DNA of 64,000 bases from Escherichia phage ph0011: sequence record OP557969.1; one strand, 5' to 3'. Positions 1,978-19,837 of the stretch are shown here, one piece after another. A program made the position numbers and the translations under genes. How positions within the stretch are numbered: position 1 is the first letter of the stretch; each line of letters starts with the position of its first letter. The notes below the pieces were generated by a model, which saw only the letters and a list, made by a program, of their open reading frames with translations, ran no database searches and was not told the origin of the DNA.

Positions 1978-2426
1978 ATCCTGGACATTTTTTTCATTTA
2001 CTGGACATTACACCTATACCCGATTTGATCAGCGAGACTAATCATTATCGTGATATTGGAATTGTATCAATGGAATATGATTCACCTGACTTTAAATGTT
2101 ACGTAACATACGATCAGGTGGCTTATGAGTCAGAGCCTGAGATTAAAAAACCATCATATATTTTTGTGTTCATATATAATGATTATAGTGGTGATGTACT
2201 GAATGATGTTCATATTGACACATTTGAAATATGTGGTAATATTATATCAGATGATTCAGCATCCACATTTGATTTGGAATTAAACAGTACTGAAGAGTCA
2301 CTTTTTCAGTTGAGTACTATATGTGATACTATATTAACTCTAGATGACATTGAGAAATTTAAAGAACAGCTTGACGCAGTTCGTGAGATGTTCTATAATC
2401 ATTATCCAGAAGTAGAGTTCAATTAA
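1971..2426 (+). CDS. EExFFQxST motif family protein
   Basis: ORF 151 aa; motif EESLFQLSTICDTILTLDDIEKF. Confidence 0.55.
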   Translation: MLNPGHFFHLLDITPIPDLISETNHYRDIGIVSMEYDSPDFKCYVTYDQVAYESEPEIKKPSYIFVFIYNDYSGDVLNDVHIDTFEICGNIISDDSASTFDLELNSTEESLFQLSTICDTILTLDDIEKFKEQLDAVREMFYNHYPEVEFN

Positions 2427-2440
2427 CTAAAGGTAATAAA

Positions 2441-2701
2441 ATGACAAAAGTAGTTCGTAAACGCCACATGATGAATATGGATGAATTTCGTACATTTGAC
2501 AAATATCGTACTATGTTTCGTATGCTGTCACAGGGTCGCCCAATCGTCATTGTAACAGAGAATTACATGTCACCTGAGATTATGTTTGGTAATTACGAAA
2601 AGGTCTTCATGTTGTACGTGAAGCGTGGATTGCTTACAATCAAGACATTAGCTGAAGCAACTGATGATGATATGGATGGAGATAATACCTTTACCATGTG
2701 A
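2441..2701 (+). CDS. hypothetical protein
   Basis: ORF 86 aa in + strand gene train. Confidence 0.4.
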   Translation: MTKVVRKRHMMNMDEFRTFDKYRTMFRMLSQGRPIVIVTENYMSPEIMFGNYEKVFMLYVKRGLLTIKTLAEATDDDMDGDNTFTM

Positions 2702-2740
2702 GGAAATATATGTCTGAAAAACCAAAAGAACCTTTAGATC

Positions 2741-3031
2741 GTGATGATGATTTTTATGACGAACGATATGGAGATGATAATGAGTAAAAATAGTGCGGTG
2801 CTTAAAAAGATTTTAAAGGAAATTGATGGTGAATTTAATGTCACAGAAGAAGAATATCAGCATTGGAAGAAAGATTTCGAACAACTAACCGAGTATGATA
2901 AAGTGTTCAATATGATTGGCGTAATTAGCCAGTACTTACTTGGTGGAGGACGTGCAAGTGCTTCAATTCTGGCATCTGCAATCATCTGCACATCACGATG
3001 GTGTGATGAAAAAAGTTTGGAAGATTTCTAA
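2741..3031 (+). CDS. hypothetical protein
   Basis: ORF 96 aa; start uncertain. Confidence 0.35.
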   Translation: MMMIFMTNDMEMIMSKNSAVLKKILKEIDGEFNVTEEEYQHWKKDFEQLTEYDKVFNMIGVISQYLLGGGRASASILASAIICTSRWCDEKSLEDF

Positions 3032-3083
3032 ATAAGATGCTATAATATATCAGAGTACCTTAACAATATAAAAAGGATTTTAT

Positions 3084-4964
3084 ATGAAACCTATCCGAGT
3101 ACTATCTCTTTTTAATGGAATGAGTGTAGGATACATGGCATTAAAAGATGCTGGTATCCCTGTTGAAAAATATTATTCATCCGAAATTGACAAATTTGCT
3201 ATAGCTGAATCCCAAGCTAACTTCCCCGATATAATCCAATTGGGTGATGTAACTAAGTGGAGAGAATGGGATATTGAATGGGACAAGATAGATCTACTGA
3301 TGGGTGGTTTTCCATGCTTCCCAGCAGGAACTATGATAATGACAAATAAAGGTCATAAAGATATAAAAGATATAAAAATTGGTGATATGGTTCTTACACA
3401 CACTGGACAGTACCAAAAAGTATTGAGTACTGGTGTTAAAAAGGCTCCCACTCGTATTATTACGGGTCAAGGTCACCTTCCAATTGAATGTACCGATAAT
3501 CATCCATTTTGGAGTAGGGAACGTCTAGCCAATAAATGGAATAATCAACGCCGAAGATATGATTCTGTGTTTTCTGAACCGCAATGGGTAAATGCTATAG
3601 ATCTTACTAAACAAAGTTATATTTGTAATGTTAAAAATATTACACATAATACTGTAAGTGATAAAGATGAAAAATATTGGTATTTTGTTGGTCGTTTTAT
3701 GGGTGATGGATGTGCTAGTGTATCTAATAACAAATACAGTATTACTATTGTAGATTCATTAGATAAAGTTGATGAATTGAAAAAATGCTTTGATGATTTT
3801 GGATACAAATACACATTAGCTATTAAAGATAATCATGTAAGATGTGATATATATAGCAAAAAGCTTTATGATGAATTAATATGTATTGGGCATAAATCAC
3901 AAAACAAATGTTTACCACCTGAAATATTCAATGAAACTATCAATAACAAAGAAGCATTTATTAAAGGATACATGGATGCAGATGGTTGTGAGGATAAACA
4001 CAATAAAAAATACAAATTTACCACCACAAGTTATAAAATAGTTCTTGGTATGCAACAGTTAATCTTAGATACTTATCAAAGTCATTGTACTATTAGCCAA
4101 ACTGTTCCAAAAACAAAAAAATATATAAAAAATAAGTTGGTTAATCAGCTTCCGTATTGGAATGTTCATTTTAGCTATAATAAAATTAAAAGAGATGATG
4201 TAATATATGATGAAATTTATATATGGAATCGTGGTGTAAAAAGTAATGTACCAACCGGAGAATGGAAAACCGTTTACAATATTGAAGTTGCAGTAGATAA
4301 CACATATACAGCGAACAATATTGTAGTTCATAACTGCCAAGCGTGGTCAGTTGCAGGTAAACAGGGTGGAATAAATGATCCTCGTGGTATGTTATTCCAT
4401 ACAATGGTTGATATTTACCAGCACATAAAAAGTCTCAATCCAGACTTGAAAGTACTGTTCGAGAATGTTAAAATGAAAGAAGATTTCAAGCAATACATTA
4501 ATAGTGTTCTTGAGATGACACCAGTACTGATAAATTCCCAGCATTATACGCCTCACTTCAGGCAGCGATATTACTGGTACAGTACTGATAAACTTTTTAT
4601 ACCACCTGCATTATCCAATGCACCTAAACTTCAAGATATTATTGAAGATGGTTGGTACACTGACAGAACCGCTTCGTACTGTATAGATGCTAACTATTTT
4701 AAGGGTGGTGATTGTAACCAGTACTTTAATAAATCAAGAAGACAAATTGTTTTCAAAGAACCTGATATCGATAGGGATTTCCTTCTTGAACATGGTAAGC
4801 GAAATGTGGACTATCGTCATTTAACAGTACAAGAGTGTTGCATGTTGCAAGGAATTGATGTAAACTACTTCAAAGTTAGTAGTTCAACACAAGCATACAA
4901 AATGCTTGGGAATGGATGGACTATGCCAGTTATATCACACTTACTACGAGATATATTCTTTTGA
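3084..4964 (+). CDS. DNA C5-cytosine methyltransferase, intein-containing precursor
   Basis: 626-aa ORF. Exteins carry C5-MTase motifs: LSLFNGMSVGYMAL (motif I-like), GGFP|CQAWSVAGK (motif IV Pro-Cys split by the insert), DPRGMLF, VLFENV (motif VI), LTVQECCMLQGI, MLGNGWTMPV. Spliced product predicted ~286 aa. Confidence 0.85.
   Translation: MKPIRVLSLFNGMSVGYMALKDAGIPVEKYYSSEIDKFAIAESQANFPDIIQLGDVTKWREWDIEWDKIDLLMGGFPCFPAGTMIMTNKGHKDIKDIKIGDMVLTHTGQYQKVLSTGVKKAPTRIITGQGHLPIECTDNHPFWSRERLANKWNNQRRRYDSVFSEPQWVNAIDLTKQSYICNVKNITHNTVSDKDEKYWYFVGRFMGDGCASVSNNKYSITIVDSLDKVDELKKCFDDFGYKYTLAIKDNHVRCDIYSKKLYDELICIGHKSQNKCLPPEIFNETINNKEAFIKGYMDADGCEDKHNKKYKFTTTSYKIVLGMQQLILDTYQSHCTISQTVPKTKKYIKNKLVNQLPYWNVHFSYNKIKRDDVIYDEIYIWNRGVKSNVPTGEWKTVYNIEVAVDNTYTANNIVVHNCQAWSVAGKQGGINDPRGMLFHTMVDIYQHIKSLNPDLKVLFENVKMKEDFKQYINSVLEMTPVLINSQHYTPHFRQRYYWYSTDKLFIPPALSNAPKLQDIIEDGWYTDRTASYCIDANYFKGGDCNQYFNKSRRQIVFKEPDIDRDFLLEHGKRNVDYRHLTVQECCMLQGIDVNYFKVSSSTQAYKMLGNGWTMPVISHLLRDIFF
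3315..4334 (+). mobile_element. intein with LAGLIDADG homing endonuclease domain inside the C5-MTase gene
   Basis: Starts Cys (CFPAGTMIMT, block A), block B TDNHPF, two LAGLIDADG motifs (FVGRFMGDGC, FIKGYMDADGCE), ends IVVHN followed by +1 Cys of CQAWS; in frame, 340 aa. Confidence 0.8.
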
Positions 4965-4966
4965 AC

Positions 4967-5446
4967 ATGAACAACTACCCCACTTATACAGAACGTGCAA
5001 TGGAATTTAAACGTCAGTTAGCCAAGGATGAATTAGAATTTAATTTGTATTATCCTAATATTGGTGATGAGGTATTGTATAGTTCTCATGCTAAGAATGG
5101 AACTTTACTTCATTCCGGTAAAGGTATTGTTGTGGATATGATTAGTACGTTTAAAGGAAAACTTAATGTAATGTACAAAGTACAAGATTCAAGTACTAAG
5201 TGTATTCATGAAGTGATGCATAATATACCTACATACCCAAAAGATTTTGTTGAGCTAATATCTCGAAGGGAGAAACCTATGTTCTATTGTGGTTACGACA
5301 AATTAACCAAACAAATTATTCCTAATACTATGGGAAAATTTAAAAGTGATGTAAAATCTGAACTTAATAAGAAATTAGGTTCTTCATGGGAAACTGAAAA
5401 CGAGTTTATCGAAATTCGTTTAATTGAAGTTACTATTCTTGATTAA
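4967..5446 (+). CDS. hypothetical protein
   Basis: ORF; start set at first ATG after MTase stop (MNNYPTYTERAMEF). Confidence 0.45.
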   Translation: MNNYPTYTERAMEFKRQLAKDELEFNLYYPNIGDEVLYSSHAKNGTLLHSGKGIVVDMISTFKGKLNVMYKVQDSSTKCIHEVMHNIPTYPKDFVELISRREKPMFYCGYDKLTKQIIPNTMGKFKSDVKSELNKKLGSSWETENEFIEIRLIEVTILD

Positions 5447-5447
5447 T

Positions 5448-5480
5448 TATAAATCCACGCATTGCGTGGATTTTTTCATA
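5448..5480 (+). terminator. rho-independent terminator hairpin
   Basis: AAATCCACGCATTGCGTGGATTTTTT. Confidence 0.6.
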
Positions 5481-5489
5481 GGTGCATAT

Positions 5490-6005
5490 ATGACAGTTCC
5501 GTATGTTAAAATTATTAACAATATCCTTGATTTATGGGAAGATGTTATTACCGGTAAAAAGAATCCAATACCAGTACACGTACTAACTGGAAGACTACAA
5601 TTCAGAATGTCTAACAAAACTGAAACGTTTAATAATCATGATATTTGTATTACATTAAAAACACCTGTTAGTATTGTAATTAAAAAAAATAAAGATGATG
5701 AATTGTCATTATCTATTGGTCGTGATAAAATTATTTTAAGTAATTTGTCTGAAGAAGAATTCTTTCAAAGAAGTACTATCATCGACATGAAAGATTTCAC
5801 ATATGAATCATTAGTAGAACTCAATACACGTTTTGATGATATTCAGGAACGATTGCGACCAATACTCCGTAGAGAAGAAGAAGCCTGGATTGAAAGTATG
5901 AAGAAGATGCAAGAAATGTTAAAAGAAAATATTAACAATCTTGGTAAAACAACAATGGAAATTGGTAAAACTTTAAAACTCAACTTTTCAAAGGATCGTA
6001 AATGA
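5490..6005 (+). CDS. EExFFQxST motif family protein
   Basis: start moved to MTVPYVKII after terminator; motif EEEFFQRSTIIDM. Confidence 0.5.
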   Translation: MTVPYVKIINNILDLWEDVITGKKNPIPVHVLTGRLQFRMSNKTETFNNHDICITLKTPVSIVIKKNKDDELSLSIGRDKIILSNLSEEEFFQRSTIIDMKDFTYESLVELNTRFDDIQERLRPILRREEEAWIESMKKMQEMLKENINNLGKTTMEIGKTLKLNFSKDRK

Positions 6006-6454
6006 AAATCGATGAACTGATTTATATTTTAGGTAACTTGCACAAAATATTGTTACATCGCAACGAGATGAATAAACTAGGGTATAATATAACTAATTTA
6101 AATGAAACATCATTTAAATATAACTCAATCACTGGTGGAAATTATAATATTGTGTATTGTCATGAAACTGACCCTGACTGCTATCAACTTACGTTATACT
6201 TTTATCCAACAAACCCTACCATTGTTCAAGACATATCATCAATATCACTTGACCCAGATGGTGAAATGAGTATAGAATATAGCTATGATTCTAAAAAAGA
6301 ATGTTACGTTGAAGATATGAAAAATATGTTTAACGATGCATATGTGTTCCAGCTAAGTACTGTACATGATGTTGGAAGTACTAATGGGCAATTTTGGAAT
6401 ACATGCTATTATCATATGATTGGAATTTGTAAATTACTAAAAGGCGATGATTAA
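6002..6454 (+). CDS. EExFFQxST motif family protein (divergent)
   Basis: ORF 150 aa; motif DAYVFQLSTVHDVG. Confidence 0.5.
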   Translation: MKIDELIYILGNLHKILLHRNEMNKLGYNITNLNETSFKYNSITGGNYNIVYCHETDPDCYQLTLYFYPTNPTIVQDISSISLDPDGEMSIEYSYDSKKECYVEDMKNMFNDAYVFQLSTVHDVGSTNGQFWNTCYYHMIGICKLLKGDD

Positions 6455-6837
6455 TGAAATACAGCATTGAAGTACATTACACTACTGGTGATACTGAAAA
6501 TCAATATAACATAGTTAAGACCATTGATGTTCAATGGGATACTAAAGAGGAAGCAGTTGCTGCTTTACAGTGTCTAAAAGAGCATTGGGTGTTTTATATG
6601 AAGCAAGATAATTGCCATACAAAAGAACGCGAAACTATCGTTAAAAATGCTAAACAAAAAGAGTGGTTTGACCCAATTTCACCAGAATATTCATTTTTGG
6701 TTAAAGTTGGTGGCGTGACAGTACCCTTACGAACACCGTGGAACGGCTACTTTGAAACTCTTCATAATGCACGAGTTGTCGCTGTTGACAATCCTGAACA
6801 AATCGATTTTGATTCATTGGACTGGAAAAAATTATGA
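6454..6837 (+). CDS. hypothetical protein
   Basis: ORF 127 aa, ATGA-coupled. Confidence 0.45.
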   Translation: MKYSIEVHYTTGDTENQYNIVKTIDVQWDTKEEAVAALQCLKEHWVFYMKQDNCHTKERETIVKNAKQKEWFDPISPEYSFLVKVGGVTVPLRTPWNGYFETLHNARVVAVDNPEQIDFDSLDWKKL

Positions 6838-15389: not shown

Positions 15390-15506
<117 letters not shown>

Positions 15507-15511
15507 AAAAG

Positions 15512-15585
15512 ACGGGGTATAGCACAATTGGATAGTGCAAGAGAATTCTAATCTCTAGGTTGGGGGTTCAAGTCCCTCTACCTCG
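15512..15585 (+). tRNA. tRNA-Arg (anticodon TCT)
   Basis: acceptor CGGGGTA/TACCTCG (one G-U), D stem GCAC/GTGC, anticodon stem AGAGA/TCTCT loop ATTCTAA, T arm GGGGG-TTCAAGT-CCCTC. Confidence 0.7.
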
Positions 15586-15610
15586 GCCTACTTTAATTAA
15601 AGGTTAAACC

Positions 15611-15775
15611 ATGACGCATGAAGAATGGATGAATGACATTAATTTTAGATATGCAGGTATCGGTAACTGGAGAAAGTATCATTGGGAAATCATATCAGAC
15701 CCAGCAGAATACGATAAACTTATGAATCATGAAGTGTATCCGTGGTTCTTTATTGAAATAATGGTACGATTATGA
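15611..15775 (+). CDS. MTHxEW small-protein family member
   Basis: MTHEEWMNDINFRYAGIGNWRKYHWEI...; ATGA overlap. Confidence 0.45.
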   Translation: MTHEEWMNDINFRYAGIGNWRKYHWEIISDPAEYDKLMNHEVYPWFFIEIMVRL

Positions 15776-15932
15776 CACATGAAGAATGGATGAATGACAT
15801 TAATTTTAGATATTCGGGTATCGGTAAATGGCTAAAGTATCATTGGGAATTCATTTCAGAGCCACATCTGTATGATAAACTTATCAACGATTCTGCATAT
15901 AAAATGTACTTAATTGAACTACTGGTACGAAT

Positions 15933-15936
<4 letters not shown>
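15772..15936 (+). CDS. MTHxEW small-protein family member
   Basis: MTHEEWMNDINFRYSGIGKWLKYHWEF... Confidence 0.45.
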
Positions 15937-16105
<169 letters not shown>

Positions 16106-16108
16106 AAG

Positions 16109-16553
<445 letters not shown>

Positions 16554-16581
16554 GTATCTTAATAACAGAAGGTATATTGAA

Positions 16582-16821
16582 ATGAGTAAGTATTTTGTGA
16601 GTTATAGTTATAATGTATCACGAAAGATTCCACGTGGTGACGGAATGGGATGGTCTTATGATGCATATACTTTAAATGAGTCATGTATCATCGAATTAAA
16701 AGAAAAAGACCTTGACATTTTAAAAATCAAACAATATATTCTTGATGTTGAATTGGCACATCGTACTGATATCTATCCAGATGTAAATAACATCAGCATC
16801 TTAGTACTAACCAAAGTATAA
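16582..16821 (+). CDS. hypothetical protein
   Basis: start MSKYFVSY after AAGG. Confidence 0.45.
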   Translation: MSKYFVSYSYNVSRKIPRGDGMGWSYDAYTLNESCIIELKEKDLDILKIKQYILDVELAHRTDIYPDVNNISILVLTKV

Positions 16822-16827
16822 GATAAA

Positions 16828-16861
<34 letters not shown>

Positions 16862-17215
16862 GAATTCCACAATCAGACGTATATGGTGTAAGTTACGTCG
16901 ATGCAATCCAGAACAAGATCTCTGGTACTCTAGGAAGTGGTTAATGTTAACCTAGACGGGTTTGATAATTGGACGATAGGCAATTATTACTTGACTAGCA
17001 GGTTTAAACTAGAGGTGACTATCCTTCACCAAACTGGAAAACCGGATGGACTTTTATTTAAAAGGGTAAGGCGTGGAAATATGTTTACAGTAGTTGCTTT
17101 TAGTAGCCTGTACGCCCCACGTCAAGGTAGCCGAAAGGCAAGTTAAAACGGGTGGTTATAAAGCTGAATTAACAGCGGCGTTTAAAAGCGTCACCATCCA
17201 TTTTTTTTAATTAAA
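16862..17215 (+). ncRNA. candidate structured stable RNA(s), unclassified
   Basis: ~350 nt directly downstream of an early promoter, ending in a T-run, with no RBS-associated ORF and locally higher GC; sits in the tRNA cluster. Confidence 0.35.
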
Positions 17216-17224
17216 GTTGGTGAT

Positions 17225-17863
<639 letters not shown>

Positions 17864-17882
17864 CTTTTTAATTTAAAAGTAC

Positions 17883-17910
17883 TTTACTGTAGTGTTTAGT
17901 ACCGTATAAT
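17883..17910 (+). promoter_or_regulatory. candidate early promoter
   Basis: TTTACT-N16-TATAAT. Confidence 0.45.
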
Positions 17911-17936
17911 GTAAACAAAAGGATAAAATAAAACTC

Positions 17937-18461
<525 letters not shown>

Positions 18462-18483
18462 TTAAAAAATCAGTACTTTATTA

Positions 18484-18697
<214 letters not shown>

Positions 18698-18720
18698 TCA
18701 TTGCACTCTTCTCTTGTAAT

Positions 18721-18868
<148 letters not shown>

Positions 18869-18889
18869 TTCACATGATATAGGGTACAC

Positions 18890-19147
<258 letters not shown>

Positions 19148-19163
19148 ATAAAAAGAACGAAAA

Positions 19164-19205
<42 letters not shown>

Positions 19206-19215
19206 GATTCCCGAT

Positions 19216-19342
<127 letters not shown>

Positions 19343-19361
19343 AGAGGTACTTCGAGTATGC

Positions 19362-19417
<56 letters not shown>

Positions 19418-19436
19418 AACTACTTTTTAATTGACG

Positions 19437-19487
<51 letters not shown>

Positions 19488-19504
19488 TACAACCGACAAT
19501 GACT

Positions 19505-19571
<67 letters not shown>

Positions 19572-19746
19572 GAAGAAACTGCTAAACAGCTTGAAGAACT
19601 TTGTAGTGCTGCACCGATGCCGACTCTTGGCTTAATCAAGTTGATGCGTCGAAATAAGAAAAATTTAAAATAATACAGTAAGATGGCCTCCCCTCCATAT
19701 CATGAGAGTATAGAGACTTGTTGGTTATCTTACTTTTAAACAAACT

Positions 19747-19820
19747 GCCTCAATAGCAAAATTGGTAATGCACACGTTTTGTAAGCGTGAGATTTTTCCG
19801 TTCGAGTCGGAATTGGGGCA
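19747..19820 (+). tRNA. candidate tRNA-Thr (anticodon TGT)
   Basis: acceptor GCCTCAA/TTGGGGC (one U-G), anticodon stem CACGT/GCGTG loop TTTGTAA, T arm TTCCG-TTCGAGT-CGGAA; 6-nt variable loop is atypical. Confidence 0.5.
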
Positions 19821-19837
19821 CAAAATAAAGGCACACT

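Follow-up and report, generated by a model that had tools for sequence, protein, structure and literature searches.

Inteins lie at the catalytic residues of their host proteins as a rule more than as an exception, and PI-SceI and the VMA inteins, inserted at the active-site region of the host enzyme, work by the chemistry of a first cysteine (Cys1), a terminal His-Asn pair, and a cysteine at the +1 position (Cys+1). In C5 DNA methyltransferases, the cysteine of the Pro-Cys (PC) motif is the nucleophile that attacks C6 of cytosine (Cys81 in M.HhaI). Phage DNA methylase inteins are already known in N6/N4 enzymes (Kelley 2016, PMC5050341; Gosselin 2023, PMC9957025), and a 2025 preprint on actinophage inteins lists a single entry for the host 'DNA methylase, C-5 (IPR001525)', namely gene 50 of phage B22, class 1 with LAGLIDADG (bioRxiv 10.1101/2025.01.02.630785, supplementary file 8). 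The window considered here, a stretch of 64,000 nucleotides (nt) from Escherichia phage ph0011 (sequence record OP557969.1), a jumbo coliphage of the genus Asteriusvirus (121Q/PBECO4 group), carries a C5 methyltransferase gene in which positions 3315..4334 are very probably a class-1 intein with a two-motif LAGLIDADG homing endonuclease, which splices and homes.

Insertion between the proline and the catalytic cysteine of such an enzyme has hardly been described. The B22 catalogue line is the only C5-methyltransferase intein in the literature searched, and the main text of the preprint and those passages of its supplement drawn on here (10.1101/2025.01.02.630785) give neither the insertion site nor its relation to the catalytic cysteine. 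No paper on the Pro-Cys site, its breadth, or the Asteriusvirus cases was found in the full-text literature, the coverage of which excludes subscription journals. In a paper on the related jumbo phage CBB, the sole inteins mentioned are those of the RaK2 and K64-1 terminases, and literature co-occurrences involving Thermus phages, C. thermocellum, B. thuringiensis phage BMBphi, phage CB7, phage CBB, and Salmonella UPWr phages proved unrelated.

The insert in motif IV of the methyltransferase

The window protein is identical to WAE77301.1, 'DNA cytosine methyltransferase [Escherichia phage ph0011]'. The initial annotation, made from the sequence alone, described an open reading frame (ORF) of 626 amino acids (aa) with an insert at 3315-4334 and quoted from it the motifs TDNHPF, FVGRFMGDGC, and FIKGYMDADGC. 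The sequence reads as quoted, to the base, and the gene is laid out as follows.

3084..4964, plus strand: methyltransferase ORF with insert, 626 aa, predicted precursor 72.9 kDa
3084..3314, plus strand: N-extein, codons 1-77, from motif I (LFNGMSVG) to the first half of motif IV (GGFP); PF00145 over residues 4-79
3315..4334, plus strand: class-1 intein with embedded LAGLIDADG homing endonuclease, 340 aa, predicted 39.5 kDa
3315..3317, plus strand: Cys1, N-terminal splicing nucleophile, block A CFPAGT; codon 78, TGC, after ...DLLMGGFP
3492..3503, plus strand: block B T60-D-N-H63 (TxxH), within TDNHPF at 3492-3509
3684..3713, plus strand: LAGLIDADG motif 1, FVGRFMGDGC; codon of catalytic Asp131 at 3705-3707; model helix 119-131
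3957..3989, plus strand: LAGLIDADG motif 2, FIKGYMDADGC; codon of catalytic Asp223 at 3981-3983; model helix 209-223
4272..4334, plus strand: blocks F and G (VYNIEVAVDNTYTANNIVVHN), with Asp328, His339, and terminal Asn340
4335..4337, plus strand: Cys+1, nucleophile of the C-extein in trans-thioesterification; in the spliced enzyme, the catalytic cysteine of motif IV (GGFP-C-QAWS); codon 418, TGC
4335..4964, plus strand: C-extein including the stop codon, with the remainder of motif IV, then motifs VI (ENV), VIII (RQR), IX (RHLTVQE), and X (GNG)

The insert comprises 1020 nt (340 codons) in the host frame and without a stop codon. Upstream it is preceded by Pro77, the -1 residue of the junction, and it ends in the His-Asn pair of codons 416-417 (CAT AAC, 4329-4334), the downstream junction reading ...NNIVVHN/CQAWSVAGK (a slash marks the insertion point here and below). 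Because TGC both opens the insert and follows it, the boundary at the DNA level is either 3315-4334 or 3318-4337, and the convention of protein splicing gives 3315-4334. In-silico removal of 3315..4334 produces GGFPCQAWSVAGK and, as had been claimed at the outset, restores motif IV of the C5 methyltransferases as GGFP/CQAWS, the arrangement found in the intein-less 121Q gp91.

The host gene matches PF00145 (C5 DNA-methylase) with an expectation value (E) of 4.6e-29, the match being split around the insert. The protein spliced in silico has 286 aa with motifs I, IV, VI, VIII, IX, and X in canonical order; its predicted mass of 33.4 kDa and that of the intein (39.5 kDa) agree with the ~33 and ~39 kDa originally estimated. 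Among solved structures, it is closest to the catalytic domains of DNMT3A/3B (E ~2e-24), which are of similar length, with the bacterial enzymes M.HhaI (E 5e-17) and M.HaeIII ranking below them. In the precursor, motif IV is divided between Pro77 and the catalytic cysteine. Since GGFPC of the window protein aligns with GGSPC of DNMT3A, and its cysteine with that of the PC motif in DNMT3A/3B and M.HhaI, the nucleophile at +1 in splicing is the catalytic cysteine of the methyltransferase itself, as first proposed, and because the catalytic loop is split and this cysteine is the +1 residue of the intein, the precursor must be inactive before splicing. The locus is a clear case of an intein lodged at the one residue that its host enzyme can least do without.

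Domain profiles, catalytic residues, and predicted fold agree on an intein with a LAGLIDADG endonuclease. Hint_2 (Pfam) is matched at E 3.7e-8 in the whole protein and 7.7e-8 in the insert alone (33-34 bits against a gathering cut-off of 28.4), and LAGLIDADG_3 (PF14528) at E 1.8e-10 and 3.4e-11, respectively, also above its gathering cut-off. Hom_end_hint and Hom_end (Pfam) match the insert below threshold, and the NCBIfam matches in this region are to intein-bearing proteins only (GyrA_w_intein, DnaB, RNA polymerase A'', and V-ATPase A). In an alignment of 152 inteins from the same Pro-Cys junction, Cys1, the Thr and His of block B, and the terminal Asn are each present in all 152, the block-F Asp in 146, and the penultimate His in 138. 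Of the LAGLIDADG residues, Asp131 is kept in 138 inteins (10 are gapped there) and Asp223 in 139 (8 gapped), and the conserved Gly residues and Lys198 are intact in the window intein. The profile alignment suggested with the initial annotation as a check places PF00145, Hint_2, and LAGLIDADG_3 above their cut-offs, and the intein blocks are conserved, so the insert is not a domain insertion lacking such blocks.

Modelled by AlphaFold2 with 29 homologues, the insert reaches a predicted local distance difference test score (pLDDT) of 93.4 and a predicted template modelling score (pTM) of 0.90. Foldseek retrieves PI-SceI (E 2e-18) and the TliVMA intein (template modelling score, TM, 0.74), then PhoVMA, PI-PfuI, and PI-PkoII, with free-standing LAGLIDADG enzymes ranking next (I-DmoI, E 5e-7). 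Helix 119-131 is followed in the model by two strands, helix 149-162, and two strands, and further on helix 209-223 by two strands, helix 240-254, and a strand; the endonuclease domain is thus predicted to have the pseudo-symmetric alpha-beta-beta-alpha-beta-beta-alpha fold of monomeric two-motif LAGLIDADG enzymes. Chance is excluded, since PF00145 is split by the insert, Hint_2 and LAGLIDADG_3 exceed their cut-offs, and the structural match to PI-SceI is this strong. With every hallmark present (Cys1, TxxH, block-F Asp, His-Asn, Cys+1, and the HINT fold), the insert is confirmed as a canonical class-1 intein. In the model of the whole precursor (pLDDT 81, pTM 0.58), confidence drops specifically at residues 75-78 and 419-429, where the junctions and the catalytic loop lie, as would fit two units that fold separately and are joined via a flexible catalytic loop; the model is silent on splicing competence.

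The same features dispose of other origins for the insert, as a bacterial intein-like (BIL) domain, as a chimera created in assembly, or as a group I intron or a free-standing endonuclease taken for coding sequence. BIL domains are Hint domains of variable, poorly conserved proteins and do without the pairing of C-terminal Asn and conserved +1 nucleophile that marks true inteins. The BIL structure 2lwy does occur among the weak sequence matches (E 0.023), but the terminal Asn and conserved +1 Cys, the highly conserved host motif, and the existence of empty-site alleles are all unlike BILs, and the continuous ORF in the host frame, with the same structure in five independently sequenced genomes, fits neither a chimera nor an intron. 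Explanations of this kind are refuted by the data.

For the intein, the established class-1 pathway suggests the following course. A single-chain 72.9-kDa precursor, unable to methylate DNA, would be translated; Cys78 (Cys1) would effect an N-to-S acyl shift at the Pro77-Cys78 bond, the N-extein would be passed to Cys418 (+1) by trans-thioesterification, and cyclisation of Asn417 would free the intein, after which an S-to-N shift would make the Pro-Cys peptide bond. Splicing would regenerate motif IV (GGFPCQAWS) in an active 33.4-kDa methyltransferase. The released 39.5-kDa intein would act as a site-specific endonuclease on intein-less alleles of co-infecting phages, with a predicted cut around ...GGNTTYCCA/TGYCAAGC..., and repair from the intein-bearing allele would copy the intein together with ~100-200 nt of 3' flank. 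Splicing, cleavage, and methylation are here activities predicted from sequence.

Filled and empty alleles in Asteriusvirus

In a first search with a 4-kb query, the locus was matched in 36 phage records, of which UE-S1 covers 100% of the query and most others ~75%, the figure expected for a gene shorter by exactly 1020 nt. In 121Q, the orthologue without an intein is gp91 (286 aa), the alignment of which with the window protein shows one clean gap of 340 residues, across which it reads GGFP-CQAWSVAGK, and ~34 sister Asteriusvirus genomes, e.g. 121Q, are intein-less with GGFP/CQAWS. Filled alleles were recognised by mapping the positions of both extein halves in each genome. Besides ph0011, the deposited genomes with an insert are UE-S1 (Pakistan; 340 aa), TH47 (USA; 343 aa), JNE01 (China; 343 aa), and A4 (Ireland; 346 aa), the five being independently sequenced, and each of the five retains an unbroken extein ORF with every methyltransferase motif. 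The proteins of ph0011, UE-S1, JNE01, and A4 are labelled in the databases as methyltransferase or 'hypothetical protein', and that of TH47 is unannotated; none of the records names an intein, and the word is absent from the UE-S1 genome paper. Marking the intein in the Asteriusvirus records puts right both the gene models and the size given for the mature enzyme.

Two Asteriusvirus genomes, those of Salmonella phage SD-6_S16 (locus L006, 1177-1200) and of SD-1_S14, have a ~65-nt deletion starting 15 nt 3' of the insertion point (…TGCCAAGCCTGGTCA/TTTTTGATCAT…), which frameshifts the methyltransferase into two ORFs. This deletion could stem from inexact repair after endonuclease cleavage, from plain loss of the gene, or from a fault in assembly.

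A segment-wise comparison of 12 alleles with their inteins excised bears on how the intein came to these genomes, and the feature in question is the following.

4335..4517, plus strand: 3' flank common to intein-containing alleles (co-conversion tract), from allele comparison

JNE01, which has the intein, and Turkey5, which does not, are 98.7% identical in the N-extein, 98.5% in the middle of the C-extein, and 99.0% in its distal part, as against 87.6% in the first 226 nt past the junction, where JNE01 is 91.6% identical both to TH47 and to the window. Within the 109 nt directly 3' of the junction lie 27 of the 36 JNE01/Turkey5 mismatches (Fisher p ~1e-18), and JNE01 carries TH47/window-type bases there. 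Two further mismatches, at -4 and -1, are donor-type as well, and apart from these a co-conversion tract on the 5' side of JNE01 is essentially lacking; the co-conversion tracts are 3'-biased. The donor tract of JNE01 is ~105 nt long (window 4335 to ~4436), and this allele has the appearance of a classical co-conversion, in which the intein and ~105 nt of donor flank would have been placed into a Turkey5-like gene. In TH47, a donor-type tract of ~185 nt (window 4335 to ~4517) stands in a BF17/121Q-like background. Over the 226 nt past the junction, intein-plus genomes are 86-100% identical to the window and intein-minus Asteriusvirus genomes 81-84%, a split not seen in the N-extein. The window itself differs from UE-S1 at 9 positions across 3300-4900 (~1.6 kb), with flanks diverged by ~2-6% upstream (200-nt bins, 2300-3299) and ~4-15% downstream (4900-6500), and such a near-identical island within diverged flanks suggests recent transfer. 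The element shows what appear to be sequence-level traces of recent homing.

The distribution of alleles also bears on a regulatory role of the intein, as a post-translational switch gained by co-option, in which conditional splicing, governed for instance by the redox state of a Cys1-Cys+1 disulfide or by DNA binding, would time genome methylation. Other inteins are documented to splice conditionally; here the junction is flanked by Cys1 and Cys+1, the latter being the nucleophile of the enzyme, so that activity would depend strictly on splicing. The ~34 sister phages nevertheless do without the intein, and its patchy distribution, the co-conversion tracts, and the conservation of the endonuclease fit a selfish element, nothing specific indicating regulation. 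A switch is accordingly improbable, and a mobile element that splices and homes is preferred.

Three intein variants occupy the one site in Asteriusvirus, those of TH47/JNE01, of A4, and of the window/UE-S1. The inteins of TH47 and JNE01 are 94% identical at the nucleotide level, and that of A4 is 75% identical to both. The window and A4 inteins share their ends, with 4 mismatches in 3315-3429 and 1 in 4252-4334, and diverge between these to ~43-67% nucleotide identity per block.

3430..4251, plus strand: central cassette, comprising part of the Hint insertion and the entire endonuclease domain, from DNA comparison with A4

At the DNA level, this cassette is unrelated to those of A4, TH47, and JNE01, the termini being common to all, and at the protein level the window intein shares 77-91% identity with TH47, JNE01, and A4 in its Hint parts. 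The endonuclease domain of TH47 is nearer to that of inteins in unrelated methyltransferases (P0005, 56%; P0046, 52%) than to that of the window (42%). Sharp breakpoints and this incongruence point to a recombinational exchange of endonuclease cassettes or, conversely, to homogenised termini; gradual divergence as the source of the difference was discarded, as it would not give sharp breakpoints. In the distal C-extein (~4742-4900), the window and UE-S1 are 88.6% identical to A4 and ~74% to 121Q, TH47, and BF17, and because this part is A4-like and not 121Q-like, the methyltransferase gene is a patchwork with a separate recombination patch. Empty sites, three variants, co-conversion tracts, and the cassette swap make up a compact natural record of the homing cycle.

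The closest relative outside Asteriusvirus, P0001, has an extein ~54% identical overall and the junction GGFP/C…HN/CQAWSVAGK. Its intein has 264 aa with a shortened endonuclease region and resembles a degenerating stage of the homing cycle.

Predicted splicing and endonuclease activity

Several points weigh against the window insert being an intein that both splices and homes. The Pfam profile Intein_splicing is matched below its threshold, with 22-25 bits against 35.8. Natural and engineered inteins generally fail or splice poorly with proline at -1, an engineered Ssp DnaX being the exception (PMC6486613), and since -1 Pro impairs most tested inteins, efficient splicing is not to be assumed from sequence alone. 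The endonuclease domain of the window is 38-41% identical in amino acid sequence to its nearest relatives in JNE01, TH47, and A4, and with identity this low its specificity, or even its activity, could differ. Finally, the co-conversion signal is strongest for the TH47/JNE01-type intein, the window variant having only the ph0011/UE-S1 identity island.

The inhibitory effect of -1 Pro (PMC6486613) would accord with a domain of intein origin that has lost splicing, which would make the methyltransferase a pseudogene or a fusion protein with another role, as would the decayed C-extein of a relative in Mannheimia phage 587AP2. Against this stand splicing residues that are invariant or nearly so in 152 diverged relatives, the intact extein ORF and motifs of the five Asteriusvirus alleles, and mini-inteins of the same family which, although without an endonuclease, still retain the splicing blocks, and loss of splicing is highly improbable. 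Conservation of the splicing residues even in such mini-inteins indicates selection for excision. Of the 154 junctions examined, 136 have Pro at -1, and the strict conservation of splicing residues argues that the lineage does splice in its native Pro context. If that splicing is efficient, the family with Pro at -1 answers a known limit of intein tools.

A narrower loss would leave the splicing domain at work and the window cassette (3430-4251) inactive or degenerating, with the intein vertically inherited or moved by general recombination. This is unlikely, though several observations lend it some weight: the endonuclease has diverged to 38-41% aa identity with JNE01/TH47/A4 and 27-36% with other relatives, the cassette has a GC content of 29% as against 36-37% in the exteins, it is found in two genomes only, and degenerate or mini versions exist in the family (13 of 152 inteins have fewer than 300 aa, including the closely related P0001 with 264 aa). 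However, the cassette keeps both Asp residues of the LAGLIDADG motifs, the conserved Gly residues, and Lys198, the domain folds confidently in the model, and the near-identical 1.6-kb island of ph0011 and UE-S1 in diverged flanks suggests recent transfer. Splicing together with homing thus remains the favoured reading of the locus.

Other features of the window were noted besides the intein. The top-scoring promoter-like site of the region, with 10/12 matches and an extended -10, lies upstream of the methyltransferase.

3017..3046, plus strand: promoter-like site (TTGGAA, 18 nt, TG-n-TATAAT), 38 nt upstream of the ATG; weak evidence

In the promoter/terminator scan of the region, promoter-like sites were no more numerous than in shuffled sequence. 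A regular-expression scan of the window in all six frames found no second intein-like C-terminal block. A cluster of seven tRNAs at 15419-19821 comprises Ser-TGA, Arg-TCT, Ser-GCT, Ser-ACT, Met-CAT, Asn-GTT, and Thr-TGT, the tRNA-Ser with anticodon ACT being an unusual call.

The Pro-Cys site and other known inteins

Searches with the intein returned many relatives at the same site. A word-indexed protein search gave 31 proteins, 27 with PF00145, with junctions of the form SP/CF...HN/CQ and intein lengths of 140-367 aa, mini-inteins of 140-154 aa being those of P0023, P0025, and P0026; it missed the window's own protein and the TH47-type relatives, which were recovered by an exhaustive search and by tblastn against phage genomes. 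The exhaustive search, in a library of 1.84 billion cluster representatives, gave 6016 matches at E<=1e-3 and 295 at E<=1e-30. Among the best 150 of the 6016, which make up the junction census, 131 are C5 methyltransferases with motif IV split by the intein between Pro and Cys, 5 inteins occupy a second site, ENV/C, directly past motif VI, and 4 proteins carry both inteins. The junction recurs in the GenBank phages Propionibacterium phage B22 (gp50), Lactobacillus phage Nyseid, EBPR siphovirus 2 (gp44), and Mannheimia phage 587AP2, and Pro-Cys-site inteins are found in at least five unrelated phage lineages in GenBank. The initial impression of a site not commonly described therefore holds for papers, with the B22 catalogue entry alone, and fails for sequence data, given 131 of the 150 best relatives and at least five phage lineages.

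Several of these relatives have features of their own. The inteins at the motif VI site (…ENV/CF…HN/CGAFSS), found among P0033, P0036, P0044, P0060, and P0084, are related to those at the PC site. The metagenomic P0016 has a Pro-Cys-site intein within a phage-like replication module; on its contig (L017, 6001-8351), a 575-aa intein-containing product is followed by two tiny ORFs and a 101-aa ORF matching PF00145, which may mean a second interruption of the methyltransferase gene, whether by an intron or by a further insertion. In Mannheimia phage vB_MhS_587AP2 (L009, 964-3284), the C-extein has decayed, with a stop 20 codons past the junction and motifs IX-X in a separate ORF, and a gene for an HNH homing endonuclease lies directly downstream of the intein-bearing methyltransferase.

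It is quite possible, if somewhat short of an even chance, that the window intein belongs to a very large, essentially uncharacterised lineage targeting the universally conserved Pro-Cys dipeptide of C5 methyltransferases. If so, this lineage would be naturally adapted to splicing with Pro at -1, a context that defeats most tested inteins; a motif common to all C5 enzymes would serve as its landing pad, allowing movement between unrelated methyltransferase subfamilies and phage lineages; and it would swap endonuclease cassettes between alleles of the same site. Culturable Asteriusvirus isolates with and without the intein would then offer a model of homing in E. coli and a source of Pro-tolerant splicing tools, crosses being feasible because these phages grow on E. 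coli.

The element is almost undescribed at the Pro-Cys site yet abundant in sequence data, and it is a standard selfish element of textbook mechanism, such that the understanding of inteins is in principle unchanged by the finding. Of the described cases, gp50 of B22 stands closest, being of the same enzyme family (PF00145/IPR001525), interrupted at the same point (GGSP/CFVAGT...VVHN/CQDLSMAG), and likewise class 1 with LAGLIDADG; it differs in having 27% identity to the window intein and in its host, a small temperate-type actinophage instead of a jumbo coliphage. The DNMT-1/2 inteins (PMC5050341) and the Dorothy_75 family (PMC9957025) resemble the window intein as class-1 LAGLIDADG inteins that have invaded phage orphan methylases, with a patchy distribution and signs of recent transfer between divergent hosts. 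These N6/N4-methylase inteins of mycobacteriophages and actinophages are detectably homologous to the window intein (~24% identity over the full length), but their hosts belong to PF01555 and not PF00145, the insertion site is another, and no catalytic cysteine is involved. Several RefSeq/GenBank records misname N6/N4 methylases with an intein as 'anaerobic ribonucleoside reductase large subunit' or 'DNA helicase' (NC_026588, Squirty gene 68; NC_031262, Brocalys gene 61), names apparently transferred via the shared intein and not the host protein. For the N-terminal splicing region, the best sequence match among solved structures is the gp41-1 mini-intein (PDB 6qaz; residues 5-67, E 3e-4), which, in contrast to the window intein, is a cyanophage-like mini/split intein of 128 aa without an endonuclease and in another host protein. 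PI-SceI of S. cerevisiae VMA1 and the TliVMA and PhoVMA inteins, the best structural matches (E 2e-18, TM 0.60-0.74), share the bifunctional union of Hint and double-LAGLIDADG domains, whereas their identity to the window intein is 13-17%, their host is V-ATPase subunit A, PI-SceI has 454 aa against 340, and proline at -1 is a feature of the window intein.

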